Part shown: positions 1,271-36,360 of the stretch, piece after piece
How the letters are laid out: each line of letters begins with the position of its first letter
Numbering within the stretch: the stretch's first letter is position 1
Source of the DNA: an uncultured Staphylococcaceae bacterium
GTDB lineage: Bacteria > Bacillota_I > Bacilli_A > ML615J-28 > CAG-313
Direction of reading: 5' to 3'
Assembly (NCBI GenBank): GCA_964384805.1
Contig: CAYLLO010000004.1
Location: 1-55,214 of the forward strand
DNA: 55,214 nucleotides
The notes under the pieces: model-generated
What the model was told of the DNA's origin: nothing
Seen by the model: the letters and a program-made list of their open reading frames with translations, nothing else
Database searches by the model: none
Position numbers and translations under genes: made by a program

Positions 1271-3187
1271 TTATTCGTTTACAATTACTGCAATACCACC
1301 TTGAGCAAGTTGTTTTGAGTCTTTATATGAACCGATTTGTCCAAACACCATTAATTTATCTCCAACTTGTACATTTGTTGCAAGTCTATAGCAATATAAT
1401 GTACCAGTCTCATCTTCAATAGTAACAGTAATGTTTTTATATTGATCACTCCATTCAGTATCAATTGTTTTTACAGTACCTTGAACAATTACTCTTGTTC
1501 CATCTTCTAATTCTACAGCTTCAGCTAAAGTAACTCTTTTTTCATATCCAGCATCAGCAATAACTTCAGCAGTAGCGCCGGCTGCGATTTGTTTTGTACC
1601 ATTATAAGAACCAACTTTACCTTTTACTTTAATAGTTTGTCCTAAAGTGACTTTTGTCGCAAGTCTAAAGCAATATAATGAACCTGTTTTATCAGTAATA
1701 GTAACATTCATATTACCATATTGATCACTCCATTCACCATTAATAGCTGTTACAATACCTTCTACAATAACATCTGCCCCATCGGCTAGTGCATTAGCTT
1801 CTTCAATAGTTGAAGTTTTTAATTCTTTAGCAACATTGATTGTTAACTCAACAACTTCTTTAATTGTACCACATTCTACAGTTGCTACAAGTTTAGCAGT
1901 ACCATCAGCAGTAATAACTAATTTACCATCAACTAACATAGTTGCGGGATCTAATGACCAAGTAACTTTTACCCCATCAGTTGCATCTACTTTAGGGAAT
2001 TCGAAATCAGAACCATTATAATAAGCAGATTCTAAAGTAACAGCATTAACTTTATTAACAGTTTGATCTACTTTATCTTGATCACTAAGAGTTGGAGCAC
2101 TTGCTTCTTCAATACTTGAAGAAATAGCAATAATACGACTATTATATGGTTTATATGTTGAATATTTATCATATGTAGCCGCTTTAATTGTTACATATTT
2201 ATCAATATAACCTTCTAATATTGTATTTTCTTCATCACTATAAGATTTATAATAAATTAATACTTGTGCTCCTGTAATAGGATCTTCTAACCAATAAGAG
2301 TCACTATCATTAGCATTAAATTTACCATATACTAATTTACCATAAAGTTTTAATGTTTGTCCACCATACATACCATCATTAATTGATTGATCATGTAAGT
2401 CTTGAATAGATATATCTTCAGAATAAACAATATTTTGATCATCAAAATCAGCACTTGATACTTCAATATTTGATCCTACTTGAAGAATACCATAATAAAC
2501 AGTGATTGAACCTTTAATATGAACCTTATCTCCAACTTTTACAGGAGTAGATCCTGTATAAACATAAATACCAGCAGTACCATCACTTACAGTAAATTGT
2601 CCTGAGCCACTTGCATTAGAAACCGCAGTAACCGTTGCATCAAACTCTGCAGGGAATTCTAAATCTGAACTGCTAGAACCTGGTTTAACCCCATTTTCTT
2701 CAAAATAGAATTTTGCGGCAGCATCTTTGATTGAAGCAAGAGTTCCTCTAGCAACAGCACTAACTTCTTCTAATACTGTAAATTTAAATTCTTTTTCCAA
2801 ACTCACAGTTTTCTTATCAGTATAGTTAGTAGATAAAGTTGCTTTTAATGTAACTTCTACATTACCACTACCAAAATCAGGACGAGTAACTTTTGCAGTT
2901 TTATATGTTGAAGATACTTCACCATTTTCAACTAAATCAGCAATTGCAATTACTGAATTATTATTACTTTCCCAAGCAATTGTAATCGCATAATCACCTT
3001 TTTTGCTTCTTGCAGCAAGTTGGAAAGATGTAGTAATTTCATTCATATTAGCAAAAGTAACTTGAGCAGCAGCTTCTTCTAACGCAGTCTCAGCTGCTTT
3101 TTTAGCTTTACTATTGCATGATGTCAAAGTTAGTAATGAAACCAGTACCATCATTACTAAAAAGCTTTTTCTGGTTGTTTTAATCAT
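1271..3187 (-). CDS. Surface lipoprotein with N-terminal Ig-like module and multiple OB-fold-like modules
   Basis: Signal peptide plus lipobox LTSC. The N-terminal module (AQVTFANM...ITIAWESNNNSVIAIADL...AKVTRP...VEVTLKATLS) is shared with the 1014-aa neighbour. Two tandem C-terminal repeats (DG..V.V.G.V..I..EWSDQY.N..VTI.D.TG.LYC.RLAT.V..G....V.G..GSY...KQ) and an internal copy resemble the OB folds of extracellular nucleases. The gene has its own promoter and terminator. Confidence 0.75.
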   Translation of the reverse strand: MIKTTRKSFLVMMVLVSLLTLTSCNSKAKKAAETALEEAAAQVTFANMNEITTSFQLAARSKKGDYAITIAWESNNNSVIAIADLVENGEVSSTYKTAKVTRPDFGSGNVEVTLKATLSTNYTDKKTVSLEKEFKFTVLEEVSAVARGTLASIKDAAAKFYFEENGVKPGSSSSDLEFPAEFDATVTAVSNASGSGQFTVSDGTAGIYVYTGSTPVKVGDKVHIKGSITVYYGILQVGSNIEVSSADFDDQNIVYSEDISIQDLHDQSINDGMYGGQTLKLYGKLVYGKFNANDSDSYWLEDPITGAQVLIYYKSYSDEENTILEGYIDKYVTIKAATYDKYSTYKPYNSRIIAISSSIEEASAPTLSDQDKVDQTVNKVNAVTLESAYYNGSDFEFPKVDATDGVKVTWSLDPATMLVDGKLVITADGTAKLVATVECGTIKEVVELTINVAKELKTSTIEEANALADGADVIVEGIVTAINGEWSDQYGNMNVTITDKTGSLYCFRLATKVTLGQTIKVKGKVGSYNGTKQIAAGATAEVIADAGYEKRVTLAEAVELEDGTRVIVQGTVKTIDTEWSDQYKNITVTIEDETGTLYCYRLATNVQVGDKLMVFGQIGSYKDSKQLAQGGIAVIVNE

Positions 3188-3244
3188 TTTTCTTTTTCCT
3201 CCATAATATTTTAAGAAAATACAAAATATTTTCTTATCATACCT

Positions 3245-3273
3245 ATTATACCATAAAAAAATATATTTAGCAA
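3245..3273 (-). promoter_or_regulatory. Sigma-A-type promoter of the 638-aa lipoprotein gene
   Basis: On the minus strand: -35 TTGCTA (3268..3273), exact 17-nt spacer, TGg-extended -10 TATAAT (3245..3250), about 55 nt upstream of the ATG. Confidence 0.6.
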
Positions 3274-3450
3274 GAGAACAAAATAAAAGTATATCAAAAG
3301 GCAGGTACTAATAAAGATATATTAAATTAAATATAAGAGAAATTGCCAATTTTAAAGCTAACAAAATTCTGTAAAACTATTAAGAAAACTGGATTTGGTT
3401 ATTTTGATTTTGATGTGTTTAGATATAAGATTATAACTACTAATAAAAAA

Positions 3451-3495
3451 GCTAAACAAATCAAAAAGGACCAACTATTCACTAGTTAGTCCTTT
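3451..3495 (-). terminator. Rho-independent terminator ending the ABC/nuclease/lipoprotein operon
   Basis: A 13-bp stem (3465..3477 / 3483..3495, one G-U pair on the minus-strand RNA, 5-nt loop) is followed by UUUUGAUUUGUUU. It lies about 110 nt after the stop at 3606. Confidence 0.7.
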
Positions 3496-3605
3496 AATAC
3501 TTTTGAGATAAATATCCAATTTTATCTTAAAATCTTAAAAATTTTTATTGAACCAATAAATTTTACCACGTCTAAAATTATTGACTAAATTATCTATTAA
3601 AGTTT

Positions 3606-6600
3606 TTATTTTTCAACAATGATTTCAATAGATTGAATATGTAGTTGAGTAGTCGCACCTGTTGTAGTATTCTTTATAATAACCGTATCGCTATTAATTT
3701 CATATAATGTAGTTGTTTTGGCACCCTCAACACCATTAACAGTAAAACTACCTACTTTTGAGCCAAAAGTAATCGTAATTGATTTAATTGTTCCTTCATT
3801 ACATTTAATAGTTAATTCGTTACCTTCACCATCTTCTTTAGAAGCATATAATCTAATTGAACCATCTTTATTTAAACCTATTTTATTAGCATATGAACCA
3901 CATGCATTAGTATTAACATTAAACAATGTTGCATCTAGATTAAGCGTTGCGGCATTATTTGTGTCTTGCACCATGTTAGTTGTAGTTCCAGCAGTATAGT
4001 TTAAAGTTACAGTTAATGTTTCAACAGGAGTATCAGTACTATGTCCAGGACATTTTTCATCTTCTGTTCCAGGACAATCTGCAGCTGTACATTTTCCACA
4101 TGTTTCACATACTGTATGAGTATGTGTTGGTTCAACTGTATGACCTGCACATTTTTCATCTTCTGTTCCAGGGCAATCTGCAGCTGTACATTTTCCACAT
4201 GTTTCACATACTGTATGAGTATGTGTTGGTTCAACTGTATGACCTGCACATTTTTCATCTTCTGTTCCAGGGCAATCTGCAGCTGTACATTTTCCACATG
4301 TTTCACATACTGTATGAGTATGTGTTGGAGTTACAGGTTCAGTTGTTGAAGTAGCTAATGCATAGAAATGTGAAACATAACTTGTTGCAATATAACTATC
4401 ATAATTACTCATACCAAATGTTACATTTGTTCCATATGTTCCCATAAAGAATTTAGTATTATCTGTTGATTTTAAAGTAACAAATGTGTTCTTTTCTGCA
4501 TCATATGTAAATACAGAGGCTGCTGTTTCTTCTACAAATTTAAAGTTATTATAGTTTCCACTAGGTACTAATGCGATATAAGTAACTGTTGCATCTGATT
4601 TAACAACTTTTAATTTATATCCACCTTCAACTGTAATAGCATAAACATCTGCTGCTGTTTCAGCATCTTCTGTTGTTGCTCCATAATATCCTTTCATGTC
4701 ACCAGTTAAGTATAAATGTTTTGAATTTTGTTCTTGATAGAATCCTAATTTATATGCTTTATCTGCTTCAAAACTTGTTGCTACTTGCCATGTTTGGGCT
4801 GGTTCAGTTGTATGTCCTGCACATTTTTCATCTTCTGTTCCAGGACAATCTTCAGCTGTACATTTTCCACATGTTTCACATACTGTGTGAGTGTGTGCTG
4901 GTTCAACTGTATGACCAGGACATTTTTCATCTTCTGTTCCAGGGCAATCTTCAGCTGTACATTTTCCACATGTTTCACATACTGTATGAGTATGTGTTGG
5001 AGTTACAGGTGTACTTGTTCCATCTACAAAGTTAATTGTGATTGAATCCCAATATGATGAATAAGTATACGCTGAATTTACAGCAAGTTTAAAGAATGTA
5101 TAAGTTTCTGCATCAGGAGTAATAGTATAAGTTTTAGTTCCTGCTACTGTATTTAAGTCAACAGATTTTGCAGCAACAGTTGTATCATTACCAAATGATA
5201 TTACAAGTACATTATTATTATCATAAGTATTTTTTCCAGCATTAAAAACTAATACAATATTTTTAATAGCTTTAGGGAAAGCTGTATTATTCCATAAAGA
5301 TGAAAGTTTTCCACCATCATTAGTTTTATTTCTCATTTGAATACCATTTCCAGTTGTAGATAATTCAGTATAACCAAATTCAACACCTTCAACAGTTTTA
5401 GTTCCATCTGCATAACTAGATAATCCTAATACGGTATCAGTTAATTCAATGTAAGTCATCACGTTTCCTTTAACTATAACAGTAAATTCTTTAGTTTTAG
5501 TAACATCTCCACTAGTAATTGTTGCTGTTAATTTAACAGTTTGATCTTCCTCAGTTCTTGTAACTTTTGCTACACCTTCTTCGATAGAAATAGCATTACC
5601 TTCAGAAATAGTCCATGTAATAGTTGAACCATTTACACCAGTTGCAAGAAGATTAAAATCTGCTTCTACTTTGTCTTCTAAAGTTAATGCAGCAGCATCA
5701 TTAGTCGCATTTTTTTCATCTTCAGTCATTGAAGAAGTCGGACTAGTGTAGAATTGTACTGGGAATACACTTGACATTTCATCATATTTTTCAATACCAA
5801 CAGTTTGATAAGTATCATGGGTACCCATTACAACTTTTGTTTCATTTAGGTCAGTTGTTAAAGTATGATAAGTTTCATCCCATGTCCATACTACCGCAGA
5901 AGAATCTTTTAATACACAGTTAAGGTATGTTCCAGAAACTACAGCAGAAATATAAGTCTTAGTTTGATCGGCATTTAAGAAATATATATGATATCCACCT
6001 TCAACAGTTTCTAAATAAGCATCAACACCATCGTTAATATCTTCACTAGTTGCAACATAATATCCGCTCATAGCGTTTTTCATATATAAAACTTTACTTG
6101 CATTTTGTTGTGTCATAGCAAGTCTATATGGAACACCTGTTTCAACTTCTGTTAAATATGTAGATACTAAAGTATTAGCTAAAACTTTAAATGTGTAAGT
6201 TTTTTGAGCTTTTAAAGTTGCACTTGTTCCATCAGTTTTGCTATAAGTCAAACTAAAATCAGCAGTTAAAGTAACAGTTGCATCTTCTTGCCCTGCTGCA
6301 GGACGAGTTACTTTGGCTTGTTTATAATAAGTTGAAGCAACACCATTTTCCATTAAATCAGCAATAGCGATTACATCTGAATTACTACTTGTCCAAGTAA
6401 TAGGAATAGTATAACTATTTTTCTTGCCTGAAATTACTAAGTTAAAATCTGATGTTACAGCTGACATATCAGCAAATGTAACTTGTGCAGTAAATTCATT
6501 TAACGCCGTTTGAGCATCTAAAGTTGGATCAGTTGTGGTAGTACCACTACCATTACCACTATTTCCAAAAATATTACAAGATGCTAAAGTAAATAATGCG

Positions 6601-6650
6601 GCAAATGTTAAAACTACTGCTAAAAGTGATTTTTTGATTGTTTTTAACAT
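3606..6650 (-). CDS. Giant modular surface lipoprotein with Cys/His-rich 33-aa repeats
   Basis: Lipobox LASC. Two Ig-like modules of the W.SSN....I......V.RP......V.LTA type. Two paralogous ~140-aa domains (GYY.AT.ED.....D.Y...VEGGY). Five copies of THTHTVCETCGKCTA(E/A)DCPGTEDEKC(P/A)GHT. Two related C-terminal beta-rich modules. The gene sits 20 nt downstream of the nuclease gene with no terminator between. Confidence 0.8.
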   Translation of the reverse strand: MLKTIKKSLLAVVLTFAALFTLASCNIFGNSGNGSGTTTTDPTLDAQTALNEFTAQVTFADMSAVTSDFNLVISGKKNSYTIPITWTSSNSDVIAIADLMENGVASTYYKQAKVTRPAAGQEDATVTLTADFSLTYSKTDGTSATLKAQKTYTFKVLANTLVSTYLTEVETGVPYRLAMTQQNASKVLYMKNAMSGYYVATSEDINDGVDAYLETVEGGYHIYFLNADQTKTYISAVVSGTYLNCVLKDSSAVVWTWDETYHTLTTDLNETKVVMGTHDTYQTVGIEKYDEMSSVFPVQFYTSPTSSMTEDEKNATNDAAALTLEDKVEADFNLLATGVNGSTITWTISEGNAISIEEGVAKVTRTEEDQTVKLTATITSGDVTKTKEFTVIVKGNVMTYIELTDTVLGLSSYADGTKTVEGVEFGYTELSTTGNGIQMRNKTNDGGKLSSLWNNTAFPKAIKNIVLVFNAGKNTYDNNNVLVISFGNDTTVAAKSVDLNTVAGTKTYTITPDAETYTFFKLAVNSAYTYSSYWDSITINFVDGTSTPVTPTHTHTVCETCGKCTAEDCPGTEDEKCPGHTVEPAHTHTVCETCGKCTAEDCPGTEDEKCAGHTTEPAQTWQVATSFEADKAYKLGFYQEQNSKHLYLTGDMKGYYGATTEDAETAADVYAITVEGGYKLKVVKSDATVTYIALVPSGNYNNFKFVEETAASVFTYDAEKNTFVTLKSTDNTKFFMGTYGTNVTFGMSNYDSYIATSYVSHFYALATSTTEPVTPTHTHTVCETCGKCTAADCPGTEDEKCAGHTVEPTHTHTVCETCGKCTAADCPGTEDEKCAGHTVEPTHTHTVCETCGKCTAADCPGTEDEKCPGHSTDTPVETLTVTLNYTAGTTTNMVQDTNNAATLNLDATLFNVNTNACGSYANKIGLNKDGSIRLYASKEDGEGNELTIKCNEGTIKSITITFGSKVGSFTVNGVEGAKTTTLYEINSDTVIIKNTTTGATTQLHIQSIEIIVEK
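4029..4325 (-). repeat. 3 x 99-bp near-identical tandem coding repeat (Cys/His module)
   Basis: The period of 99 nt was verified by position (GCAGCTGTAC at 4081 and 4180). Copies two and three look identical by eye. Each copy encodes the 33-aa unit THTHTVCETCGKCTAADCPGTEDEKCAGHTVEP. Confidence 0.9.
4800..4997 (-). repeat. 2 x 99-bp tandem coding repeat, same family as 4029..4325
   Basis: It encodes THTHTVCETCGKCTAEDCPGTEDEKC(P/A)GHT(V/T)EP twice. It is in direct orientation and highly similar at DNA level to the 3-copy array about 475 bp away. Confidence 0.9.
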
Positions 6651-6670
6651 TTTTTGTTATCTCCTTTAAT

Positions 6671-8038
6671 TTATTTTTGGTATCCTAAATCTTCTAGATT
6701 CATTACCATTAATTGATAATTATCATAATAAGGTTGAACAACCCCTATAACATTTTTAAATGTACATCCTTTAAACGTTTCCCATGTTTTGTTCTTCATA
6801 ATGCTTGTAACCTTTAAAGCTACATTAGCATCAATTCGAATATTTACTCTTACACCATCAGGTGTTTCAGTATAAATTGTATATGCATCAGTATTATCGT
6901 CATCTTTACCACCAGTTACGGTTAAAGTGTCAAATTGAACTAACCGACAAGCCATATCCATAGTCATATTTTTCCAATCACTAGAAGTGATTTGAACAGG
7001 TGTCACAGAATTGCCTGTAGATTGAACATCAATAATGATGTTGCTTACACCAACGACTTGAAGAGCACCATTATGATAACTAATGTTAGCATTAGTAACA
7101 ATATAATTACCAGTAGCAAGTTTCAAATTTTCTTCAAATCCACCATATACATAAATACCATAAGTTTTACCATCTCCAGGCACAAATGTTTCATTTCCAT
7201 CTGTATCTACAGTATAGTAACCTTCATTAACTTGTTCAATAAATGCTGAACTAATTCCAAGTTTACGAGTAACTAAGCCCTCAATATATACTTTAGTTCC
7301 TTTGTATTCCTCAGAAGCAATGGCCTCAGGTGTTCCAAATAAATCAATAATTTGCTTTAAAGTATATTTTTTCCCTTGAGCACTATAATCGTATGTTGGA
7401 TCTTCCTCACCATTAGTACGATCTCGATATGCTTGAGCACGAGTACCAGCATCATAGAATGTTTGCATATAAAGAGTTCCTGTTAATCCTTTAGCAGGAG
7501 AATATCCTTCTTCAACTAATTCTAAATTTAATAAACGATATGGTGAAGTACTACTTGTACGATACCATACGTATGCTAAATAACGTTTGTTACTATCAAA
7601 CAATCCTGTTGGATCAGCTTGTAAAATAATTGATTCAGCGCTTTCTAATTTTGTTTTTGTAAATTTAGCAGCCGCAATACCCCATGGTTCAACTTTATAC
7701 GTAGATTCAGGAGTATCAAGTCCTAAATATCTTACACTAATATCATTAGCTCCAGTTGATAAATTAGCACGGAAATATGTTGTATCTCCATCAACATATC
7801 TATAAACTGTCGCATATGTTACCCCATCAACATCCAAAGTTGATGTTTGAGTAGGTAATTGAGTTAACATTAAACTATCTGTATATTTTGTTCGTGAACC
7901 TGTTAGATCCACATTACTGCCACCTGTTCCAGTTCCTGTTCCTTGGCCCATAAGTTCTTCACATCCGCACAAGCAGAACATTGAAACTACTAGCAGAACT
8001 AAGGCAGCAATTTTAGTTTTAAATTTCATTTTTATCAC
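6671..8038 (-). CDS. Thermonuclease (staphylococcal nuclease, SNase) family lipoprotein with OB-like C-terminal modules
   Basis: Signal peptide plus lipobox LCGC. SNase catalytic motifs are intact: YVDGDTTYF, VRYLGLDTPES, KRYLAYVWY, LNLELVEEGYS. The C-terminal half has OB-like segments (YKGTKVYIEGLVTRK...GIYVYGG...ISYHNGALQV). Confidence 0.85.
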   Translation of the reverse strand: MIKMKFKTKIAALVLLVVSMFCLCGCEELMGQGTGTGTGGSNVDLTGSRTKYTDSLMLTQLPTQTSTLDVDGVTYATVYRYVDGDTTYFRANLSTGANDISVRYLGLDTPESTYKVEPWGIAAAKFTKTKLESAESIILQADPTGLFDSNKRYLAYVWYRTSSTSPYRLLNLELVEEGYSPAKGLTGTLYMQTFYDAGTRAQAYRDRTNGEEDPTYDYSAQGKKYTLKQIIDLFGTPEAIASEEYKGTKVYIEGLVTRKLGISSAFIEQVNEGYYTVDTDGNETFVPGDGKTYGIYVYGGFEENLKLATGNYIVTNANISYHNGALQVVGVSNIIIDVQSTGNSVTPVQITSSDWKNMTMDMACRLVQFDTLTVTGGKDDDNTDAYTIYTETPDGVRVNIRIDANVALKVTSIMKNKTWETFKGCTFKNVIGVVQPYYDNYQLMVMNLEDLGYQK

Positions 8039-8045
8039 CTAACTA

Positions 8046-9482
8046 CTAAATTAGTGAGTTACAGTTATTGATAGCTGCTTCATAAGCCTCATCGATAGGA
8101 GTTCCTACTAATACCGCACGAACTAATCCTTCTACTTCATCACGAGCTTTTGATGAACCCATAAATGCTTCAGATGTATAGAAGATATTTTGTTGAGCCC
8201 AACCAACTATTTGAGCTTGAGATTTAACTGTTCCATCAGCTATTTTTTCTTGATATTCAGCTGAATTATATACACTTTCACGAATTGGGAAATATGCAGT
8301 TTCTGTACACCATAATAATGCATTATCGAAATTAGTCATCCATTTCATGAATAACCATCCACCTAATTCTTCTAAATCATTATCTCTTTCAAATAAGCAA
8401 ACATTAGTTCCTTGTTGAATTACATTTTTATTTTGTCCATCTGCTCTTTGTGGATATTCAGCAACACCTGTTGCGAAACTTTCAGTAGTGTTGTAAGAAG
8501 CACCAGCTGATGAACCGGTAGTCATAACACATTGCATTGCTTTAAATGCATCTGATGAATAGTCAGTACCAAATTTTTGAGCTGTTCCAAAGATTCCTTC
8601 GTTGAATTTTTCAGTAAACCAAGAAATAGCAGCTTTAGATTCAGCATTATTAAATAAGTATTGACCTTTACCATTTGCGTCAAATCCTGTATATTTTCCA
8701 CCCCATTGTTGAGTTAAAGTGATGAAAAGGTTAGATTCTGAGTCTACTGAGAAGCCTGATGCAACTTCTTTTAATGTTGCTTCTAATGCATTGTATTCAG
8801 CAGTTGTTGCATAGAATTTAGCAATTCCTTCAACTTGATCCCATGTAGGATTTCTCCAAGTACCATCGGCTTGTACCCCATATTGAGCAAGTTGAGTAGC
8901 ATATAGTTTAAAGAAATCTTTATTATAGAACAATACTTCTGTTGATTTATTGAATGGTACACAATACATTTTACCATCACCATATACAGAACCTTCAGCA
9001 TAGAAAGCATCTACAAAGTCTGCAATATCAGATGCAGTCCATCCAATTTGACTTGTTCCTTGAGTACCTGTTGCCCATGTAGCATCAAGAGTATAATTAA
9101 TTTTAGATGCAACTGTAGATGTATCATTGATATACTCATCTAAACTTGTTAAAGCATTAGCATATAAATAGTTAGCGATGTGGTCAGGATATGCTTGAGC
9201 GATTGTTGGACCTTCACCAACTGGAACGGAATATAAGATTTTATCTCTTAAATCTGTATATCCACCTTGTGAAGTTTGTACAACTTCAAACATAGGGTAT
9301 GCAAGTTCAAATGATTCGATCATTTTATCAATAATAACTTGATTAGCTTGACCCATTGCATGCCAGAAAGTAATTGTAGTTTTCCCATTAGCGTTTGTGC
9401 CACCACCCATTCCGGTCATATCACAACTAGCAAGAGAAACACCTGCAACTAATAATGCCATTAGGCATAAAAATTTTTTCAT
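8046..9482 (-). CDS. ABC transporter substrate-binding lipoprotein (family 1 / CUT1 type)
   Basis: The likely true start is residue 70 of the track ORF (MKKFLCLMALLVAGVSLASC, lipobox LASC), preceded by GGAG. The longer ORF would overlap the upstream permease gene. ITFWHAMGQ and the overall composition are typical of sugar/glycerol-phosphate-type SBPs. The start coordinate is taken from track numbering and could be off by a few nt. Confidence 0.8.
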   Translation of the reverse strand: MKKFLCLMALLVAGVSLASCDMTGMGGGTNANGKTTITFWHAMGQANQVIIDKMIESFELAYPMFEVVQTSQGGYTDLRDKILYSVPVGEGPTIAQAYPDHIANYLYANALTSLDEYINDTSTVASKINYTLDATWATGTQGTSQIGWTASDIADFVDAFYAEGSVYGDGKMYCVPFNKSTEVLFYNKDFFKLYATQLAQYGVQADGTWRNPTWDQVEGIAKFYATTAEYNALEATLKEVASGFSVDSESNLFITLTQQWGGKYTGFDANGKGQYLFNNAESKAAISWFTEKFNEGIFGTAQKFGTDYSSDAFKAMQCVMTTGSSAGASYNTTESFATGVAEYPQRADGQNKNVIQQGTNVCLFERDNDLEELGGWLFMKWMTNFDNALLWCTETAYFPIRESVYNSAEYQEKIADGTVKSQAQIVGWAQQNIFYTSEAFMGSSKARDEVEGLVRAVLVGTPIDEAYEAAINNCNSLI

Positions 9483-9558
9483 TGTTTTTTCTCCTTTTTT
9501 TAATTTTAAAATTTTTCTTTCTTTTCTTAAATATATATTTACTAAAACAAGCTTAGTT

Positions 9559-10467
9559 TTAGCCTTTGATTCCGCTTCTTGATACTCCTCGCATAATATA
9601 TTTACGCAAGAAAATAAATAGAAGCAGTAGTGGTACGGTAACAAGGGTTGTTGCCGCCATCTGAACATTTTGTTGAGAACGTCCTTCATTATCTTTAAAG
9701 GCTGTTCTTAACCCATTTGAAATTAATCTCATATTTTCTTTACTTGTAATAAGATTTGGCCAAACATATGAATTCCATGTTCCCATTAGTTTTAAAATGG
9801 TCATTGTGATAATTGTAGGCATTCCAATGGGAATCATAACTTTTAACAAATATTTAAAATCTCCGGTTCCGTCAACTTTAGCTGCATAGTAAAGTTCGTC
9901 TGGAATTTGTTTAAATGATTGTCTTAATAAGTAAATATTAAACACACTAACCATAAATGGAACTATCAACCCCATATATGTATCATCCCATTTTAAAACA
10001 CGATAAACTGTTTGCATATTGGTAATAGTTAACATTTCACCTGGAATCATCATTGTCGCCATAAATAATGAGAACAATAAATTACTTCCTTTAAATTTAA
10101 TTCTCGCAAACGCGAATGCCGCAAGAATAGTTGTAATTAAAGTTCCAATTGTCGACCATACACCTACCCAAATAGTATTAAAAACTAATCGTCCATAGTT
10201 GAAATTTGCCTTTGTTACAGCTGTAATATAGTTTTTCCATTGTGGATCTTTAGTGAAAAAAGATTGAATTGGTGCTTCTAATTCAGCATCAGATTTCAAA
10301 GAAACTAAGAACATCCAATAAAACGGAATAACAACAAATATAGCAAGCACAATTAAAAATGTATAAAGCAAGATATATTTGAGTATTCTTAACATCTTTT
10401 CTCTTTTAATTAATTTTACAGCGTCTAAATGTTCATCATTGGGAGTTATATTTTTATTAATTGTCAT
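9559..10467 (-). CDS. ABC transporter permease (MalG/UgpE-like, CUT1 family)
   Basis: Six-TM profile with the EAA-type loop (YYAAKVDGTGDFKYLLKVMIPIGMP). Confidence 0.85.
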   Translation of the reverse strand: MTINKNITPNDEHLDAVKLIKREKMLRILKYILLYTFLIVLAIFVVIPFYWMFLVSLKSDAELEAPIQSFFTKDPQWKNYITAVTKANFNYGRLVFNTIWVGVWSTIGTLITTILAAFAFARIKFKGSNLLFSLFMATMMIPGEMLTITNMQTVYRVLKWDDTYMGLIVPFMVSVFNIYLLRQSFKQIPDELYYAAKVDGTGDFKYLLKVMIPIGMPTIITMTILKLMGTWNSYVWPNLITSKENMRLISNGLRTAFKDNEGRSQQNVQMAATTLVTVPLLLLFIFLRKYIMRGVSRSGIKG

Positions 10468-10480
10468 TTATATCCACCTC

Positions 10481-11428
10481 CTAGTAATGAACCATTTTTT
10501 TACTAACCACTGATTGAATAGCGGTTATAATCATAATAATTATAAACAAGATAACGGCCCCTGCAGATGCTACACCTACATTGCCTTTAATATTTTGATA
10601 AATTGACCAAACAATTGTTGCCATTGTATTTGTGGTAGCCCCATATGGTTTAGCATTCTCACCAAAAATCGCAATGACCGAGTTGTATGCTTTAAACGCT
10701 CCAATAAATGATGTAATCATTAAATACACAATTTGTGGAGAAAGAAGTGGAACGGTGATTCTCCACAAAGTTCTTGCTTTTGATGTACCATCAATTTGAG
10801 CTGCTTGATAATATTGTTTATCAATACCTTGTAAAGCACTTAATAAAATTAAGATTTTGAATGGTAACGCATCCCAAATAGTGTAAATCAATAATACCAT
10901 TAAGGAATTAAAGTATGGAGCTGCGCCACCTACTGGAGAACCCATCCATTTAACTGGATCGCCTCCTAAGGCCTTAATAACGGTGTTTACTAAACCTGTT
11001 CTATCATCAAAGATAATTGCGAAAACCATCCCAATCGCAATTGTATTTGTTACATAAGGCAAAAAGAATATTGTTTGTAATAATTTTTGAAATTTAGGAA
11101 TTGAATTTAAAGCAACAGCAATTAATAATGAAATAATAATCGCAACTGGTACTGATATTACCGCTACCAATGCTGTATTTTTTAAATAAATGTTAAAGAA
11201 TCTCATATTTGATCCAACTAATACTTCTTTAAAGTTATTTAAATTTATTGATTGAAGCGTAATTGCTTGATTATTAATATCTACTAAACCTGTTCTTGTA
11301 TAGTGTGCTCCTTCAACAAATGCTGTGAAAAAAGTATTAAGAATTGGATAAAAAGTGAAAACAATAAGCAAGATAATTGTTGGCGCAAGGTATAACCACG
11401 CCTTCCATTGACTTTGTTTGACTTCCAT
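10481..11428 (-). CDS. ABC transporter permease (MalF/UgpA-like, CUT1 family)
   Basis: Multi-TM protein with the EAA loop (YYQAAQIDGTSKARTLWRITVPLLSP). It starts 1 nt after the ATPase gene. Confidence 0.85.
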   Translation of the reverse strand: MEVKQSQWKAWLYLAPTIILLIVFTFYPILNTFFTAFVEGAHYTRTGLVDINNQAITLQSINLNNFKEVLVGSNMRFFNIYLKNTALVAVISVPVAIIISLLIAVALNSIPKFQKLLQTIFFLPYVTNTIAIGMVFAIIFDDRTGLVNTVIKALGGDPVKWMGSPVGGAAPYFNSLMVLLIYTIWDALPFKILILLSALQGIDKQYYQAAQIDGTSKARTLWRITVPLLSPQIVYLMITSFIGAFKAYNSVIAIFGENAKPYGATTNTMATIVWSIYQNIKGNVGVASAGAVILFIIIMIITAIQSVVSKKMVHY

Positions 11429-11429
11429 A

Positions 11430-12509
11430 CTACTGAATTCGACTTTCTGTTATTTTATCAAAAACAAAACATTTATTTTTCTTAATTGTTGCTTTAATTT
11501 GTTTTCCTGGAGCAATATTTTCAATATCTGCATCAATAATAAAACGGAACGTTGGATTTTCAGAACTTGAATTTTTACCAACAATTGATTTATCTCGACC
11601 AATATATTCGACTTGTTCAATATCAATTGTTAAATCACCAGTTCCTTCAGAATTAACTTCAAATCCTTCTGGTCTAATACCTACAATTACTTCTTGGTCA
11701 TTCAATTCAGAATCACCAATTTTTTCATTTCCAATATATAAACCTTTATTGGCAATTTTACCAAAGAATAAATTAATCGGAGGAGTTCCTAAGAATTTAG
11801 CAACAAATTTATTAACTGGGTTGTTGTAAACATCTTGAGGAGCACCTTTTTGTTGTTCAATTCCTGTTTTCATAACTACAATTTCATCAGAAATACTCAT
11901 AGCCTCTTCTTGGTCATGGGTTACGAAAATGGTTGTAATTCCTGTTTCACGTTGAATTCTCTTAATTTCTTCTCGAGTTTGTAAACGTAAACGAGCATCT
12001 AAATTAGACAATGGTTCATCTAACAATAAAACTCTTGGCTCTTTAACTAATGCTCGAGCAATCGCAACACGTTGTTGTTGTCCTCCTGATAATTGTTTAG
12101 GTTTACGATTAAGCAAAGATCCAATATCTACTAAATCGGCAACTTTTTGAGCTCTTTCTAGTGCTTCTTGTTTAGGAACTTTCAAGTTTTGAAGTGGAAA
12201 TAAGATATTTTGTAAAACTGTCATATGCGGATACAACGCATAATTTTGGAACACAAGTCCTATTCCCCTTTTTTCTGGTGGTAATTCTGTAACATCTTCA
12301 TCATCAAAAAAGATTCTCCCAGATGTAGGCTTTAATAAACCAGCAATCATATAAAGAGTTGTTGATTTACCGCATCCTGAAGGACCTAATAAACCGATTA
12401 ACTTTCCTGAAGGGATAGTAATATCTAGTTCATCGACAGCTCTTACTTGCATGGATGCATCGCCTTTATCTTGGAAAACCTTGGTTAACTTCTCTAGTCT
12501 AATATCCAT
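11430..12509 (-). CDS. ABC transporter ATP-binding protein (MalK/UgpC/MsmX-like)
   Basis: Walker A GPSGCGKST, signature LSGGQQQRVAIARAL, Walker B LLLDEPLSNLD, and a C-terminal regulatory (TOBE-like) extension. Confidence 0.9.
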   Translation of the reverse strand: MDIRLEKLTKVFQDKGDASMQVRAVDELDITIPSGKLIGLLGPSGCGKSTTLYMIAGLLKPTSGRIFFDDEDVTELPPEKRGIGLVFQNYALYPHMTVLQNILFPLQNLKVPKQEALERAQKVADLVDIGSLLNRKPKQLSGGQQQRVAIARALVKEPRVLLLDEPLSNLDARLRLQTREEIKRIQRETGITTIFVTHDQEEAMSISDEIVVMKTGIEQQKGAPQDVYNNPVNKFVAKFLGTPPINLFFGKIANKGLYIGNEKIGDSELNDQEVIVGIRPEGFEVNSEGTGDLTIDIEQVEYIGRDKSIVGKNSSSENPTFRFIIDADIENIAPGKQIKATIKKNKCFVFDKITESRIQ

Positions 12510-12566
12510 ATGTTTTTTCCTCCATATTTTTGAGCAAATATAACAAATACTTCCTCTTTTAACTTT

Positions 12567-12595
12567 ATTATATCATATTTTTCTAAAATTAGCAA
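12567..12595 (-). promoter_or_regulatory. Sigma-A-type promoter of the ABC/nuclease operon
   Basis: On the minus strand: -35 TTGCTA (12590..12595), 17-nt spacer, -10 TATAAT (12567..12572), about 55 nt upstream of the ATPase ATG. Confidence 0.6.
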
Positions 12596-12681: not shown

Positions 12682-12711
12682 AAACAAAAGAGGCGAATTA
12701 AAATTCACCTC
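12682..12711 (-). terminator. Rho-independent terminator after the recR-linked small gene
   Basis: Hairpin GAGGTGAATT / AATTCGCCTC on the minus-strand RNA (one G-U pair) at 12690..12711, followed by CTTTTGTTT. Confidence 0.55.
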
Positions 12712-12718
12712 CTAATTA

Positions 12719-12973
12719 TTATATAAAAATCCAAATTATTGAAGCAATAACAAGTATAGCGGCAATTACCACTATAATTTTGGCACTTCTTTTAATTACC
12801 GCTATTGCTCCAATAAGTACAAGAATTCCTACAGCAAGTAAAATTAAAGTTTGGATAATATATGAAAAAGCACCAAAAAAATCAAGAACATAATCAACAA
12901 GTTGACTACATTTTTCACTAATAAAATTGATAAATGATTGAAATATATTTAATTCTTTTAGCATCTTTTTCAC
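12719..12973 (-). CDS. Small membrane protein (hypothetical)
   Basis: An 84-aa ORF 8 nt downstream of recR with two strongly hydrophobic segments. I recognise no family. Confidence 0.45.
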   Translation of the reverse strand: MKKMLKELNIFQSFINFISEKCSQLVDYVLDFFGAFSYIIQTLILLAVGILVLIGAIAVIKRSAKIIVVIAAILVIASIIWIFI

Positions 12974-12981
12974 TCCTCTTT

Positions 12982-13581
12982 TTATAGTTTTATTCTTGAT
13001 GATAAAGCTTTTCTAAGTGTCAATTCATCAGCATATTCAATATCTCCACCTGCTGGAATTCCATAGCCTATTCTTGAAATTTCTAAACCTTCACGTTTCA
13101 ATATTTTTTCCAAATAAAGGGCCGTTGTTTCTCCTTGAGGCGTTAAACTTGTCGCAAGTATAACTTCTTTAACATCTAAATTTTTACAACGTTCTTCAAG
13201 TTCTTTAATAAATAAATCATCAGGTCCAATACCATCCATAGGTGAAATTAATCCTCCAAGTACATGATATAAACCATTATATTGCTGTGTTTTTTCTAGT
13301 GATATTACATCTTTAGTATCTTTAACCACTAATATTTTGTCTTTTTCACGAAGTTCATTTTGACATATATCACAAACTTCTTCAGTAGTTAAAATATTAC
13401 ATATACTACAATGTTTAATATTTTTTTTGGTCGAAAGCAATACTTTAGTAAATTCTACAACATCTTCATCCGTTAATTTTTCTACCACTTGAAAAGCATA
13501 ACGAGTAGCAGTTTTTTGTCCAACTCCAGGGAGTTTTTCAAAACACTCAATTAAGGGATCTAAAAATTTTAATGCATTCAT
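12982..13581 (-). CDS. recR: Recombination protein RecR
   Basis: N-terminal helix-hairpin-helix (LPGVGQKTATR), C4 zinc finger (CSICNILTTEEVCDIC), Toprim region. It sits in the canonical dnaX-ybaB-recR order. Confidence 0.95.
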   Translation of the reverse strand: MNALKFLDPLIECFEKLPGVGQKTATRYAFQVVEKLTDEDVVEFTKVLLSTKKNIKHCSICNILTTEEVCDICQNELREKDKILVVKDTKDVISLEKTQQYNGLYHVLGGLISPMDGIGPDDLFIKELEERCKNLDVKEVILATSLTPQGETTALYLEKILKREGLEISRIGYGIPAGGDIEYADELTLRKALSSRIKL

Positions 13582-13887
13582 TTAGAAGAATGATCCTCCA
13601 AGCATTGATTGATATTTACCTAATTTCTCTTCCGTAAATTTTTCAACTTCTTTATGGGCAGCATTGTAGGCAGCAACAATCATTTCTCCTAACATTTCAG
13701 TATCTTCCTTAGAATCGATTGTAAAAGTTTCATCAATTTCTACTTTCAGTAATTCTCCAGTCCCTTTGATTGTTACATTAACTACTCCACCAGCACTTTT
13801 AGTAAACTCAGCATTAGAAATCTCCTCTTGTGCTTTCATTATTTCTTGTTGCATTTGGCGGATTTTACGCATTTGTTGTGGATTCAT
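13582..13887 (-). CDS. ybaB: YbaB/EbfC family nucleoid-associated protein
   Basis: A 101-aa protein between dnaX and recR with typical sequence (MQQEIMKAQEE...GGVVNVTIKGTGE...KVEID). Confidence 0.9.
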   Translation of the reverse strand: MNPQQMRKIRQMQQEIMKAQEEISNAEFTKSAGGVVNVTIKGTGELLKVEIDETFTIDSKEDTEMLGEMIVAAYNAAHKEVEKFTEEKLGKYQSMLGGSFF

Positions 13888-13891
13888 ATTA

Positions 13892-16800: not shown

Positions 16801-17401
16801 CTTCTTCAATCGCAATTTTTTCTTTTTCAGCAATGCTTGTTAAATTGCTCTTAATTTCTTTAACTGTTAATGGTTTAAAATCAAATCGTTGGCAACGAGA
16901 TAGGATTGTTGCTGGAATCTTGTGCGGTTCGGTTGTTGCCATGATAAACATAACATGTGCAGGTGGTTCTTCCAACGTTTTTAAAAGCGCATTAAATGCT
17001 GAAATACTAAGCATATGAACTTCATCGATAATATATACTTTGTATTTTAAAACACTTGGTAAAAAATTAACCTTTTCTAAAACATTTCTTATTTCATCAA
17101 CACCATTATTACTGGCTGCATCAAATTCAACAATATCAGGAGTTTCATTGTTATTAATCATTCTACATGATGAACATTTATTGCATGGTTCACCAGCATG
17201 CAAGTCTTCACAATTGATGGCTTTAGCTAAAATACGAGCAATGGTTGTTTTTCCTATTCCTCTTGGTCCGCTGAATATATATGCATGTGATGTTTTATTA
17301 TTAGTAAGAGCATTTTTCAAGGTCTTAATAATATGTTCTTGTCCAATTACAGAACTAAAACTATTTGGACGATAACTTCGATACAACGCTTTATAAGCCA
17401 T
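13892..17401 (-). CDS. dnaX: DNA polymerase III subunit gamma/tau, unusually long (1169 aa)
   Basis: The N-terminal ~365 aa form the canonical clamp-loader AAA+ module (GPRGIGKTTIARILAK, Zn module CNKCSSC, DEVHMLS, SRCQRFDF). The last ~200 aa resemble the Firmicute DnaX C-terminal domain. About 550 aa of coiled-coil, E/K/P-rich sequence (VEPIVE motifs) lies between. Confidence 0.9.
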   Translation of the reverse strand: MAYKALYRSYRPNSFSSVIGQEHIIKTLKNALTNNKTSHAYIFSGPRGIGKTTIARILAKAINCEDLHAGEPCNKCSSCRMINNNETPDIVEFDAASNNGVDEIRNVLEKVNFLPSVLKYKVYIIDEVHMLSISAFNALLKTLEEPPAHVMFIMATTEPHKIPATILSRCQRFDFKPLTVKEIKSNLTSIAEKEKIAIEEEALNLVAEASDGGMRDAIGILDQVNSYSTKEITLEDVNNVTGRISNQKLIELMQVINENNSAKAVELTNDLLSLGKEVSRLVQGLLQLCRDILLYQSTDGEANDKLIYNDMAFKMLCNNLNKKKIFYYIEVLSDVQNKIKFSLSQKIFLEVGIMKMASASRDDYNTQSNQGALLGEVLPNDIEERLVTLEVHLNKIKSELVKLNLNEFQNETKEKLTLLENTVIKNNSNIDYSSFEERLIKLEEKEIVPNINLDAINEEIEMIKKQLEGNNNIESNDSAFMKEELETIEASIQLAFNQIEELSTSLKTKEHKEPEALTLFDFNQSNDKEELELLKSQYEELKTQLEALQHTYSNIEASLNELVLTDSKVEASIQKRENPYEQKVLDIVEVQRKIEEEKELVEPIVENYVQEDMFKNLEVQEVAEQSPLEQFENQLSEDVTIETLEETSTTNQQDIENDTLEETKIPEEMTRPIDDFFTNPVFFNKPLEETPVEPVLEEVKEPVEPIVEERKVEPIVEKVDVLPSSDEQKSDILSLDDFEREVEEELHYELSCNINQLESGLRAVAINEKIPLDTLNYVVLNLYNMKDDIKLFITDKQEGKYIQEPSLGKDANKNIKTFLITVSGREAMVASTKDKEIKGLIAEIKELIKEFRNFKEQTLEIAQPVVVPVLEPKEEKIIEQVHVEPVVEPALNKMENEIIEEIKELPVENESPLENVDSQPEESKDIYEEVLNEPTIMPIVEEIALKKEEVETPNTTFKLDNLVIKEEEPVKKESVQSTYKRATVLETTAPRTLETISQNVPRDNPYAIEKIEMVMHDSRSEISREERKIIINNWQRLGDRVGTALSPVARFLMDGVPVVNGNNCIIITYPNAALCNHIMGDKIHFEAKQILKITFGREYDFVALPENIWQEKRNEYRGQYQMGTRFPKLTPINNPELKIIKKSFVDEKSPSYNKAVDLFGENLIKEEEE

Positions 17402-33890: not shown

Positions 33891-33908
33891 GTTATTTTAT
33901 GCTATTTT

Positions 33909-34697: not shown

Positions 34698-34699
34698 AA

Positions 34700-35020: not shown

Positions 35021-35050
35021 ATAACACGCACCTCCTTAATATACAATAAG

Positions 35051-35079
35051 ATTATACCACAACCAAAATTTAAAATCAA
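35051..35079 (-). promoter_or_regulatory. Strong sigma-A-type promoter of the RHH-ParA operon
   Basis: On the minus strand: -35 TTGATT (35074..35079), 17-nt spacer, extended -10 TGGTATAAT (35051..35059). The spacer contains AAAATTTAA, related to the repeat core further upstream. Confidence 0.65.
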
Positions 35080-35965: not shown

Positions 35966-36007
35966 TATACTTATAAAAATAATTATTTCTATATTTTTAT
36001 AAGTATA
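35966..36007. repeat. Perfect 15-bp inverted repeat in the AT-rich spacer
   Basis: TATACTTATAAAAAT (35966..35980) and ATTTTTATAAGTATA (35993..36007) are separated by 12 nt. Confidence 0.8.
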
Positions 36008-36331: not shown

Positions 36332-36360
36332 AAACATAAGTAATAATAAGGTGATTAATT

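Follow-up and report, generated by a model that had tools for sequence, protein, structure and literature searches.

A compact set of seven genes in the 55,214-nucleotide stretch of DNA analysed here (the window) probably encodes a cell-surface system that scavenges nucleic acids. The first-pass annotation had proposed an apparatus at the cell surface for capturing, cutting and importing extracellular nucleic-acid products, and sequence comparison lends this proposal support through gene content, synteny around the SNase gene, matches to OB folds, intact catalytic residues, a substrate-binding lipoprotein (SBP) nearest to the dinucleotide binder 7C0F, the presence of NrnA and SurE genes in relatives, and the induction of homologous loci in Izemoplasma. 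Such a locus is not new: it matches the published “DNA-degradation locus” of the Izemoplasmatales and the SNase-ABC operons of mycoplasmas. All seven open reading frames were confirmed in place on the minus strand, and the features are as follows:

12567–12595, minus strand: operon promoter, TTGCTA-17 nt-TATAAT with an extended −10 TG, followed by the RBS GGAGG ahead of the ATPase ATG
11430–12509, minus strand: ABC ATPase of UgpC/MalK type with a C-terminal TOBE/OB_MalK regulatory domain (Pfam ABC_tran, 132 bits)
10481–11428, minus strand: ABC permease 1, UgpA/MalF-like (BPD_transp_1; UgpA model 77.7 bits, cutoff 335)
9559–10467, minus strand: ABC permease 2, UgpE/MalG-like (BPD_transp_1; UgpE model 120.8 bits, cutoff 297)
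8046–9482, minus strand: family-1 SBP of the UgpB branch of CUT1 (SBP_bac_8), lipobox LASC
6671–8038, minus strand: surface nuclease lipoprotein (PF00565, 39.6 bits, cutoff 21), lipobox LCGC
3606–6650, minus strand: LP1014, a lipoprotein of 1014 aa with Ig-like domains, three uncatalogued beta-sandwich modules and five Cys/His repeats, lipobox LASC
4798–5000, minus strand: 99-nt tandem DNA repeat, 2.1 copies at 91% identity, encoding two 33-aa Cys/His units
4050–4328, minus strand: 99-nt tandem DNA repeat, 2.8 copies at 99% identity, encoding three 33-aa Cys/His units
3465–3495, minus strand: intrinsic terminator of the six-gene unit, 13-bp stem and U-run (dG −18.4 kcal/mol, z −4.5)
3245–3273, minus strand: LP638 promoter, TTGCTA-17 nt-TATAAT with TG, its hexamers identical to those of the operon promoter
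1271–3187, minus strand: LP638, a lipoprotein of 638 aa with Pfam tRNA_anti-codon (PF01336) and aBig_2, lipobox LTSC
1235–1263, no strand assigned: palindromic hairpin with a 13-bp stem directly after the LP638 stop, a likely terminator

The tight six-gene minus-strand cluster described at first pass was recovered in its ORFs, gaps and signals alike: the genes follow one another in the order ATPase-permease-permease-SBP-SNase lipoprotein-LP1014, with intergenic gaps of 1, 13, 76, 7–16 and 20 nt, bounded by a good promoter at one end and a strong terminator at the other, and the separately promoted LP638 gene comes after them. The operon promoter is intergenic and sits just past a hairpin (12688–12713) that closes the upstream unit; inside the operon there is no strong hairpin, only weak ones of 5–6 bp. 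Since promoter-like matches overall show no enrichment (62 against 68 expected), the two promoters are called by score and position only. A look for RNA runs containing the sequence gave none, and co-transcription of the six genes is predicted from the sequence signals. The hairpin after LP638 has a dG of −15.9 kcal/mol (z −6.3) on the minus-strand RNA and a less canonical minus-strand U-run, and the contig ends 1270 nt beyond LP638. The mechanical ORF of the SBP reaches 9689, with the lipoprotein start MKKFLCLMALLVAGVSLASC at 9482, and that of the nuclease opens with GTG, the database start being the ATG at 8029 (452-aa form). The lipoboxes of all four lipoproteins were read directly from the sequence, and the Pfam matches (ABC_tran, BPD_transp_1 twice, SBP_bac_8 and SNase) each exceed the gathering score. 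The description of the host as a spore-former is weakly supported and not established, as it derives from one SpoVT/AbrB-like gene that scores below its family cutoff.

Cutting would fall to the nuclease lipoprotein, in whose 452-aa form an SNase domain (residues ~65–215) is followed by OB folds at 229–329 and 337–451. Its catalytic motifs, reported as intact at first pass, prove to be so in alignment, with D82, R100, D105, T106, E108 and R149 corresponding to SNase D21, R35, D40, T41, E43 and R87, the full catalytic set. The OB-like modules also claimed for this protein are the two C-terminal folds, which are homologous to the OB modules of LP638 (HH probability 94–99% for most pairings and 50–71% for those with OBb). 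In LP638 itself, where at least three OB-fold-like modules had been noted, four were mapped together with two Ig-like domains, in the order aBig_2 (43–138), OBa (170–244), OBb (275–343), aBig_2 (383–461), OBc (456–545) and OBd (552–636). The AF2 model of this protein (pLDDT 86.5) finds its top Foldseek matches in HIN-200/dsDNA, Teb1, POT1 and RPA, all with probability 1.0, so that the earlier concern that the OB modules might be carbohydrate-binding folds is met by a match to nucleic-acid-binding tandem OB folds instead. LP638 is, as modelled, a candidate surface polynucleotide binder. OB folds may also take oligosaccharide or protein ligands. The N-terminal module said to be common to LP638 and LP1014 is indeed shared, at 44% identity over 157 aa.

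LP638 also bears some resemblance to the ExeM/NucH and EddB-type extracellular nucleases of Shewanella and others, in which an N-terminal OB fold is frequently accompanied by an LTD. Its match to the ExeM/NucH model NF033681 is weak, 32 bits where the cutoff is 300, and is confined to residues 202–245, in the OB part; Pfam and NCBIfam profiles found no endonuclease/exonuclease/phosphatase catalytic domain in LP638 or LP1014, and the ExeM/NucH identity was rejected.

The “DNA-degradation loci” of Candidatus Izemoplasmatales were described by Wasmund et al. (2021; PMC8289736), and homologous loci are induced by DNA/RNA in the cultured Izemoplasma relatives Xianfuyuplasma coldseepsis (PMC8397711) and Hujiaoplasma nucleasis (PMC10470597). 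The window carries orthologous genes in the same order, ATPase-permease-permease-SBP-SNase-large lipoprotein with nucleic-acid-binding domains, and it has an SNase lipoprotein with intact residues and an adjacent same-strand Ugp/CUT1 ABC transporter; the large surface protein with predicted nucleic-acid-binding domains would be LP638, judging by PF01336 and the model. The Izemoplasmatales loci, however, continue with phosphohydrolases, whereas no co-localised DHH/NrnA-like phosphohydrolase or nucleotidase was found in the window, and tblastn gave no match to NrnA or SurE genes anywhere in its 55 kb. They also have one lipoprotein gene where there are two here, the LTD, ComEC-like MBL protein and second nuclease of Izemoplasma are missing from the window, and the host here is an uncultured animal-gut lineage of Bacilli.

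The SNase-ABC “nucleotide transporter” operons of mycoplasmas (Mhp379; P80/MAG_5030-MAG_5040-MAG_5050..5070; MslA-MGA_0676; MPN133-136; MBOVPG45_0307-0311) have a proposed role in the uptake of nucleic-acid precursors (PMC3585158, PMC4045577, PMC9740415). MAG_5040 of M. agalactiae, co-transcribed with P80 and the ABC genes, has nuclease activity (PMC3585158), and DNA in both ss and ds form is bound by MslA, encoded in a “putative nucleotide transporter operon” (PMC4045577). As in the window, the neighbours of a lipoprotein SNase are a Ugp-like ABC transporter and a polynucleotide-binding lipoprotein of SBP-like type, but the mycoplasma order is SBP-SNase-ATPase-permease-permease, in contrast to the ATPase-permease-permease-SBP-SNase-lipoprotein order seen here, and neither tandem OB folds on the nuclease nor giant OB/Ig lipoproteins have been reported for those operons. 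OB folds and an SNase domain are also combined at the cell surface in YhcR of Bacillus subtilis, a single sortase-anchored protein that has a 5′-nucleotidase domain as well and is not known to have a dedicated ABC importer; the parts in the window are instead lipoproteins encoded beside an importer.

Conservation of the gene neighbourhood, proposed at first pass as a check, is borne out in related genomes of Izemoplasmatales, Haloplasma, Acholeplasmatales, Anaeroplasma and gut Bacilli: 59 of the 60 with enough flank have ATPase-permease-permease-SBP immediately upstream of the SNase gene. The ATPase was found in 64 related loci, and the full order ATPase-PermA-PermE-SBP-SNase-LP recurs in L009, L011, L014, L018, L031 and L041 (Izimoplasma ZiA1), L016 (Haloplasma) and L019 (Liberiplasma); the usual position of the cluster is after dnaX-ybaB-recR. 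A BLAST-detectable relative of LP638 or LP1014 follows in 43 of 61 loci, and 16 of the other 18 have a different lipoprotein there (328–1667 aa). Two NrnA-like phosphoesterases lie downstream in 33 of 43 loci, and also in L081, with SurE in 17.

When searched as a family profile, the SBP has its best PDB match in 7C0F/7C0x (E 1.7e-45, full-length), followed by E. coli UgpB (1e-41). The former is the uridylyl-3′-5′-phosphoguanosine-binding protein of Thermus thermophilus, a dinucleotide (U3G)-binding SBP (Chandravanshi et al. 2021, as cited in PMC12718374). In the UgpB/GPC-binding/U3G-binding branch of CUT1 SBPs phosphate is coordinated by two Tyr and two Ser, and in UgpB-type SBPs a Trp clamp holds the glycerol moiety (PMC12718374). 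Y75, S180, S324 and Y397 are invariant in 43 SBP orthologues and align to identical residues of 7C0x, which are presumed to coordinate phosphate, their equivalence to the published positions being inferred. The relationship to 7C0F is a remote one, with UgpB only slightly further away. The SBP is, from its sequence, a candidate binder of short phosphorylated nuclease products.

All four transporter proteins have their top NCBIfam matches in the Ugp (glycerol-3-phosphate) models UgpC, UgpA, UgpE and UgpB, and the homologous MPN134-136 of M. pneumoniae is annotated as a putative G3P transporter (PMC3178575). Together with the rank of E. coli UgpB as the second-best solved relative of the SBP, this speaks for a rival reading: a genuine Ugp system that supplies lipid or phosphate metabolism with sn-glycerol-3-phosphate or glycerophosphodiesters from outside, the nuclease and lipoproteins being mere neighbours. 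We consider such a system quite unlikely, given that the scores are far under the equivalog cutoffs (361 versus 432 bits for UgpC, 121 versus 297 for UgpE, 78 versus 335 for UgpA and 65 versus 411 for UgpB), that GlpQ is recurrent in none of 79 loci as against the near-universal SNase adjacency, that the nearest structure binds a dinucleotide and not G3P, and that the Mycoplasma G3P role is itself only “putative”. Even the best UgpB E-value among the 43 orthologues, 3e-26, is far short of the cutoff. The UgpBAEC identity was rejected on the four missed cutoffs and the lack of a recurrent GlpQ.

Nucleosides are the usual currency of salvage, and the same machinery might import an unphosphorylated nucleoside or nucleobase after extracellular dephosphorylation, as proposed for the Izemoplasma loci, whose importers were termed “probable nucleoside or nucleobase transporters” (PMC8289736). 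This is unlikely in our estimation: no recurrent extracellular nucleotidase was found in the cluster, either in the window or in relatives; the SBP falls in the phosphate-recognising UgpB branch and appears to keep the candidate Tyr/Ser tetrad; and P48, an example of the known mollicute nucleoside SBPs, has been described as a separate lipoprotein (PMC12892991). Moreover, the cytoplasmic NrnA-like and SurE genes downstream in relatives would have a purpose only if the cell takes up phosphorylated oligomers.

LP1014, an accessory protein of the cell surface, varies between strains. Its N-terminal half comprises aBig_2 (57–156), module A (166–301), aBig_2 (321–401) and module B1 (403–543), and its C-terminal half two Cys/His repeats (551–614), a second module A (624–763), three Cys/His repeats (775–871) and module B2 (879–1010). 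The claim of two giant OB-fold/Cys-repeat lipoproteins thus stands only in part: OB folds occur in LP638 (and the nuclease) but not in LP1014, and Cys repeats in LP1014 only. AF2 gives a pLDDT above 80 for the Ig, B1, A2 and B2 parts; modules A, B1 and B2 have no Pfam or PDB sequence match, and Foldseek returns only moderate matches to CBM-like beta-sandwiches (CBM86, CBM51 and CBM32), not to nucleic-acid binders. These modules and the Cys repeat are rare in the reference loci. A carbohydrate system, with an oligosaccharide or (deoxy)ribose-derived sugar as the cargo of the CUT1 transporter and glycan as the ligand of the CBM-like modules, would suit these matches, the CUT1 family membership and the finding that 30 of the 43 SBP orthologues also match a carbohydrate SBP model. 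It is nonetheless very unlikely, as the fusion partners of modules A and B1 elsewhere are nucleases (Endonuclease_1 or Endonuclease_NS) and not glycosidases, and the branch nearest to the SBP binds phosphate; the worry that SBP orthologues might sit with glycoside hydrolases is also allayed, neither these nor a GlpQ-like family being among the recurrent neighbours of the 79 loci. The ligand of LP1014 could be nucleic acid, glycan or a matrix component, and its analysis brings to light several surface modules missing from the catalogues, A, B1, B2 and a Cys/His mini-domain, which keep company with extracellular nucleases.

For the scavenging system, the folds suggest that the four OB folds of LP638, borne on Ig-like spacers, would hold extracellular DNA/RNA at the membrane with the help of the nuclease's own two, and the intact catalytic residues, with biochemistry from mycoplasma homologues, that the SNase domain would cut the polymer. 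Enzymes of the SNase class yield 3′-phosphorylated mono-, di- and oligonucleotides. The UgpB-branch SBP would then bind one of the small products that bear phosphate, a dinucleotide or 3′-nucleotide being the most likely, and pass it to the two permeases, powered by the MalK/UgpC-type ATPase. In the cytoplasm, going by synteny in relatives, NrnA-like phosphoesterases and the SurE 5′/3′-nucleotidase, whose genes are absent from this contig, would release nucleosides and phosphate. Counting against scavenging are the Ugp models as best matches for all four transporter proteins, the near-equal closeness of UgpB and 7C0F to the SBP, the CBM-like modules of LP1014, the lack of NrnA/SurE on the contig and the nucleoside/nucleobase inference of Wasmund et al.

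Uncultured animal-gut Bacilli share, with gene order and chromosomal position preserved, a locus known from marine Izemoplasma and from mycoplasma pathogens, which suggests feeding on, or salvage from, extracellular DNA and RNA by these gut bacteria. The comparative data also sharpen the idea of the ligand to short phosphorylated nuclease products. Tentatively, and with rather more doubt than for scavenging as such, the Ugp-like ABC transporter beside a surface SNase may across mollicute-related Bacilli, pathogenic mycoplasmas included, be a dedicated importer of short 3′-phosphorylated nuclease products (dinucleotides/3′-NMPs) and not of G3P, sugar or nucleoside, coupled to cytoplasmic NrnA-like nanoRNases and the SurE 3′-nucleotidase in an ancestral, vertically inherited oligonucleotide-feeding pathway fixed beside dnaX-ybaB-recR. 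If true, such a ligand would correct the G3P, sugar and nucleoside annotations of the mollicute transporter. In pathogenic mycoplasmas the SNase-adjacent transporter is annotated UgpCAE.

All seven minus-strand genes of the first-pass annotation are found between 12595 and 1235, and the reading in which their products would together capture, cut and import nucleic acid is supported by synteny, by predicted folds and by the literature. Searches with Pfam and NCBIfam bear out the families that had been proposed for the ATPase, the permeases, the SBP and the nuclease, and a lipobox cysteine ends the signal peptide in all four exported proteins (LASC, LCGC, LASC and LTSC).

Genes of the cluster and their family matches
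minus strand, ATPase: UgpC/MalK type with a TOBE/OB_MalK tail (Pfam and NCBIfam)
minus strand, two permeases: BPD_transp_1, one UgpA-like and one UgpE-like (Pfam and NCBIfam)
minus strand, SBP lipoprotein: SBP_bac_8 (Pfam)
minus strand, nuclease lipoprotein of 452 aa: SNase domain (Pfam)
3606-6650, minus strand, LP1014, a lipoprotein of 1014 aa: aBig_2 (Pfam)
1271-3187, minus strand, LP638, a separately promoted lipoprotein of 638 aa: aBig_2 and, in this protein only, OB-fold tRNA_anti-codon (Pfam)

That the first six of these form a tightly packed unit running from a promoter to a strong terminator is confirmed by the open reading frames, their spacing (1, 13, 76, 7-16 and 20 nt), the promoter at 12595-12567 and the strong hairpin at 3495-3465 (13-bp stem, -18.4 kcal/mol, z -4.5, followed by a U-run); the hairpins within the unit are of 5-6 bp only, and LP638 is followed by a hairpin of its own (-15.9 kcal/mol, z -6.3). 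Terminator-like hairpins are enriched in the window (13 against 4.2 +/- 2.3). The promoters at 12595-12567 and 3273-3245 both read TTGCTA-17-TATAAT with an extended -10 TG and have a GGAGG ribosome-binding site downstream, and since promoter-like matches in the window (62) do not exceed their frequency in shuffled sequence (68 +/- 8), it is score and position that argue for these two. A run search found the sequence in gut-metagenome DNA runs alone and in no RNA run. The mechanical reading frame of the SBP extends 69 codons further upstream (9483-9689), overlapping the permease gene; a lipoprotein signal peptide begins with the ATG at 9482, the true start. For the nuclease, the start is GTG 8038 in the ORF listing and ATG 8029 in the databases.

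The arrangement is conserved well beyond this organism. A genome scan with the nuclease family, taking one genome per species, returned 79 loci from Candidatus Izemoplasmatales, Haloplasma, Liberiplasma, Acholeplasmatales, Anaeroplasma, "Staphylococcus sp. CAG:324", uncultured gut "Mollicutes" and "Bacilli", and some rumen metagenome-assembled genomes labelled Clostridia. The ATPase, the two permeases and the SBP lie directly 5' of the nuclease on the same strand in 59 of the 60 loci that offer 5.2 kb or more of upstream sequence. Where at least 2.5 kb of downstream sequence is present, the next gene after the nuclease is recognisable by BLAST as related to LP638 or LP1014 in 43 of 61 loci; among the other 18 the position is taken by a different lipoprotein in 16 (328-1667 aa), and a sample of ten of these contained aBig_2 in six, OB folds in four and lamin-tail domains (LTD) in two. 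In most loci, the window included, the cluster follows dnaX, ybaB and recR (39, 31 and 42 loci, respectively). Further 3', two tandem DHH/DHHA1 genes are present in 33 of the 43 loci with a flank of at least 7 kb; their products, which show no signal peptide, resemble NrnA (243-247 bits, cutoff 350). SurE lies downstream in 17 loci. In 19 loci, mostly of Izemoplasmatales (an example is L018:9708-12097), the large lipoprotein is followed by a surface protein with Ig-like and metallo-beta-lactamase domains, whose best match is the C-terminal (nuclease) domain of ComEC, and then by a second thermonuclease; the gut lineage of the window has neither. NrnA and SurE are likewise absent from the 55-kb window, whose contig ends 1270 nt past LP638. 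Near that end lies a RhuM-family gene that is truncated, has a strong promoter-like site to itself (286-840 and 1176-1204) and stands at the place that NrnA, NrnA and SurE occupy in relatives; behind this may lie an insertion, or else a mobile element at which the assembly broke.

The module as such is not new, being known from mycoplasmas and from Izemoplasmatales. In Mycoplasma agalactiae the SBP-like P80, the SNase MAG_5040 and ABC genes are co-transcribed, and the M. hominis group keeps the P80-SNase-ABC arrangement, for which import of nucleotide precursors has been proposed (PMC3585158). MslA binds DNA in single- and in double-stranded form and belongs to a "putative nucleotide transporter operon" (PMC4045577), and the mycoplasma model has been restated in reviews (PMC9740415, PMC12115388). 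"DNA-degradation loci" of Izemoplasmatales were described by Wasmund et al. in 2021, with nucleases near the best matches of the SBP (PMC8289736), and cultured strains have been shown to degrade DNA and RNA and to up-regulate genes of such a locus, one induced locus taking in NrnA, a nucleoid-associated protein and RecR (PMC8397711, PMC10470597). The last two of these fit the dnaX-ybaB-recR neighbourhood of the present loci, and their qRT-PCR response in the DNA-induced locus (PMC10470597) may stem from this constant position and not from any part in degradation. Since the syntenic loci include those of Izemoplasmatales genomes, we take the cluster of the window to be an orthologue of the Izemoplasmatales locus. 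What is added here is the presence of the cluster in gut Bacilli lineages, the constancy across the clade of its gene order and of its place in the chromosome, the recognition of OB folds at the nuclease C-terminus, a dinucleotide-binding protein as the closest SBP structure, and the uncatalogued modules of LP1014.

The cutting component appears intact. In an alignment of 16 members of the nuclease family (35-100% identity), DGDT, R..(D/N)TPE and a later Arg are invariant, and pairwise alignment places D82, R100, D105, T106, E108 and R149 on D21, R35, D40, T41, E43 and R87 of staphylococcal nuclease, so that all aligned catalytic residues are kept, as the first-pass annotation had held. Pfam has no match for the last 230 residues. 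Profile-profile comparison resolves them into two domains, both related by homology to LP638's four OB modules, with HH-suite probabilities of 94-99% for most pairings and weaker values (50-71%) for the module OBb. This homology bears out the proposal of OB-like modules beside the SNase domain and makes the protein a lipid-anchored SNase with OB folds in tandem.

For LP638, in which at least three OB-like modules had been expected, four are mapped, in the order aBig_2, OBa, OBb, aBig_2, OBc and OBd. Its AlphaFold2 model (mean pLDDT 86.5 from a 25-sequence alignment) has as its top Foldseek matches in the PDB tandem-OB nucleic-acid binders, all at probability 1.0: the HIN-200 domains of p204, IFI16, AIM2 and p202 with dsDNA or ssDNA, Teb1 AB, POT1 and RPA. 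TM-scores on the target are only about 0.4, because domain orientations differ. The model also matches multi-domain carbohydrate enzymes such as AbnA, in long, low-TM alignments; the concern that the OB-like modules might be carbohydrate-binding folds is answered for LP638 by the match to tandem-OB binders. Assignment of LP638 to ExeM/NucH was rejected by NCBIfam.

LP1014 is a different kind of protein. Of the description of both giants as OB-fold and Cys-repeat lipoproteins, the OB folds stand for LP638 and the Cys repeats for LP1014, which is not an OB-fold protein. The predicted N-terminal module common to the two is confirmed, and consists of the signal peptide and the first aBig_2 only (44% identity over 157 aa). 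The remainder of LP1014 comprises two copies (A1 and A2) of module A, which is about 140 aa long and 38% identical between copies, a second aBig_2, modules B1 and B2, and five 33-aa Cys/His units.

Repeated elements of LP1014
4347-4799 and 5748-6155, minus strand: copies of module A
4050-4328 and 4798-5000, minus strand: Cys/His units (LP1014 residues 551-614 and 775-871)

The Cys/His unit (HxHxxCxxCGxCTxxxCxGxxxxKCxGH; 5 Cys, 3 His) has no Pfam family, links modules in no fewer than 27 related giant lipoproteins and may be a spacer stabilised by metal or disulfides; it is encoded by 99-nt tandem DNA repeats, 91-99% identical, which could permit variation in copy number. Modules A, B1 and B2 gave nothing significant in the PDB (sequence-profile searches) or in Pfam at E up to 1, and profile-profile comparison found no kinship among them. 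Divergent LTD were rejected as an identity for the three (hhalign probability below 1%), as were OB folds, with no hit to the OB modules at the 30% reporting threshold of hhalign. The LP1014 model was built from alignment A9, two others having been dropped (A7 stacked fragments on one module and A8 lacked coverage of module A); it is confident over the Ig domains, B1, A2 and B2, with A1 poorly folded, and its Foldseek matches, only moderate, are to carbohydrate-binding modules of beta-sandwich fold (CBM86 at TM 0.46, CBM51, CBM32-like) and AbnA. It is the company kept by these modules that ties them to nucleic-acid metabolism: in about 110 homologues A, B1 and B2 are shuffled combinatorially with OB folds, IG-A-IG in LP1014 corresponding to IG-OBa-OBb-IG in most paralogues; module A, a family of 975 representative clusters (50% identity, E<=1e-3) often present in 2-7 copies per protein, shares polypeptides with Endonuclease_1 catalytic domains and OB folds; and one homologous protein (P0222) joins B1, A and the Cys unit to Endonuclease_NS.

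LP1014 also varies among strains. The nuclease, LP638 and LP1014's N-terminal half are all spanned by metagenome contigs from related strains (88-99% identity), and contig depth falls to about zero over the C-terminal modules of LP1014 (window 3511-5400) with the flanking genes covered. This suggests that these modules are replaced from strain to strain, though a lack of contigs is no proof of absence. The gene that follows the nuclease ranges from 986 to 1758 aa in close relatives and differs in architecture, and at one locus (L081) an LP638 orthologue directly follows the nuclease with no LP1014 between. LP1014 is best regarded as an accessory surface protein that evolves fast and varies from strain to strain.

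The identity of the imported ligand is the one promising lead. All four transporter components have Ugp as their best NCBIfam models, far under the equivalog cutoffs, and the best PDB match of a profile built from 43 SBP orthologues is 7C0x/7C0F, over its full length (E 1.7e-45), with E. coli UgpB just behind (1e-41). 7C0F is the uridylyl-3'-5'-phosphoguanosine-binding protein of Thermus thermophilus (PMC12718374, main text and SI Table S5); within CUT1 it is a member of the UgpB branch, whose defining feature is phosphate coordination by two Tyr and two Ser, and its pocket is the largest in the branch (PMC12718374). The invariant SBP residues Y75, S180, S324 and Y397 align with identical 7C0x residues at QGGY, FNKS, SAG and TGY, and judging from this alignment would be the published phosphate ligands. 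The NCBIfam model "P68 family surface lipoprotein" is matched by 37 of the 43 orthologues and may mean either the P48 homologue P68, as the M. bovis protein has been described, or the P80/MslA type. Staphylococcal-type nucleases yield 3'-phosphorylated mono- and dinucleotides, NrnA breaks down oligonucleotides that are very short, and SurE acts as a 5'/3'-nucleotidase; given this enzymology, the most coherent reading is that short phosphorylated nuclease products would be imported and their digestion finished inside the cell. Import of G3P, to which the Ugp models and the near match to UgpB point, is kept as a rival, as is import of nucleosides; neither GlpQ nor any glycoside hydrolase is a recurrent neighbour in the 79 loci, which also tells against the possibility that the SBP orthologues always sit beside glycoside hydrolases.

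The window is about 30% G+C and contains the replication-origin region, with dnaA at 31220-32605 followed by genes that we take to be dnaN, recF, gyrB and gyrA. GC skew changes sign near 32-36 kb, and a very AT-rich stretch (22.7% G+C) separates dnaN/parA-like from recF; together these likely mark oriC (33900-36500). The sole sporulation-flavoured gene is SpoVT/AbrB-like (172.9 bits against a cutoff of 235.9) and, with a 359-aa Xre/RstR-like HTH protein, follows mfd (53425-55144). Relatives have yabG and spoVG near the locus. These genes hint at a spore-former but do not suffice to establish one, and many related genomes are labelled as wall-less lineages. A T-box leader (42340-42541, 116 bits) lies upstream of serS, listed at 42408-43880, whose true start is probably further downstream. 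Within the recR, ybaB and dnaX block (12982-17401), DnaX (13892-17401) has 1169 aa, roughly double the usual length (1159 aa in the L081 relative), and a long, acidic, partly repetitive insert rich in Glu, Pro and Val separates its ATPase core from its C-terminal region. Between recR and the operon promoter, a predicted membrane ORF of 84 aa (12719-12973) without a family match is followed by its own hairpin (12688-12713), and a 78-aa gene occupies the equivalent position in L081.
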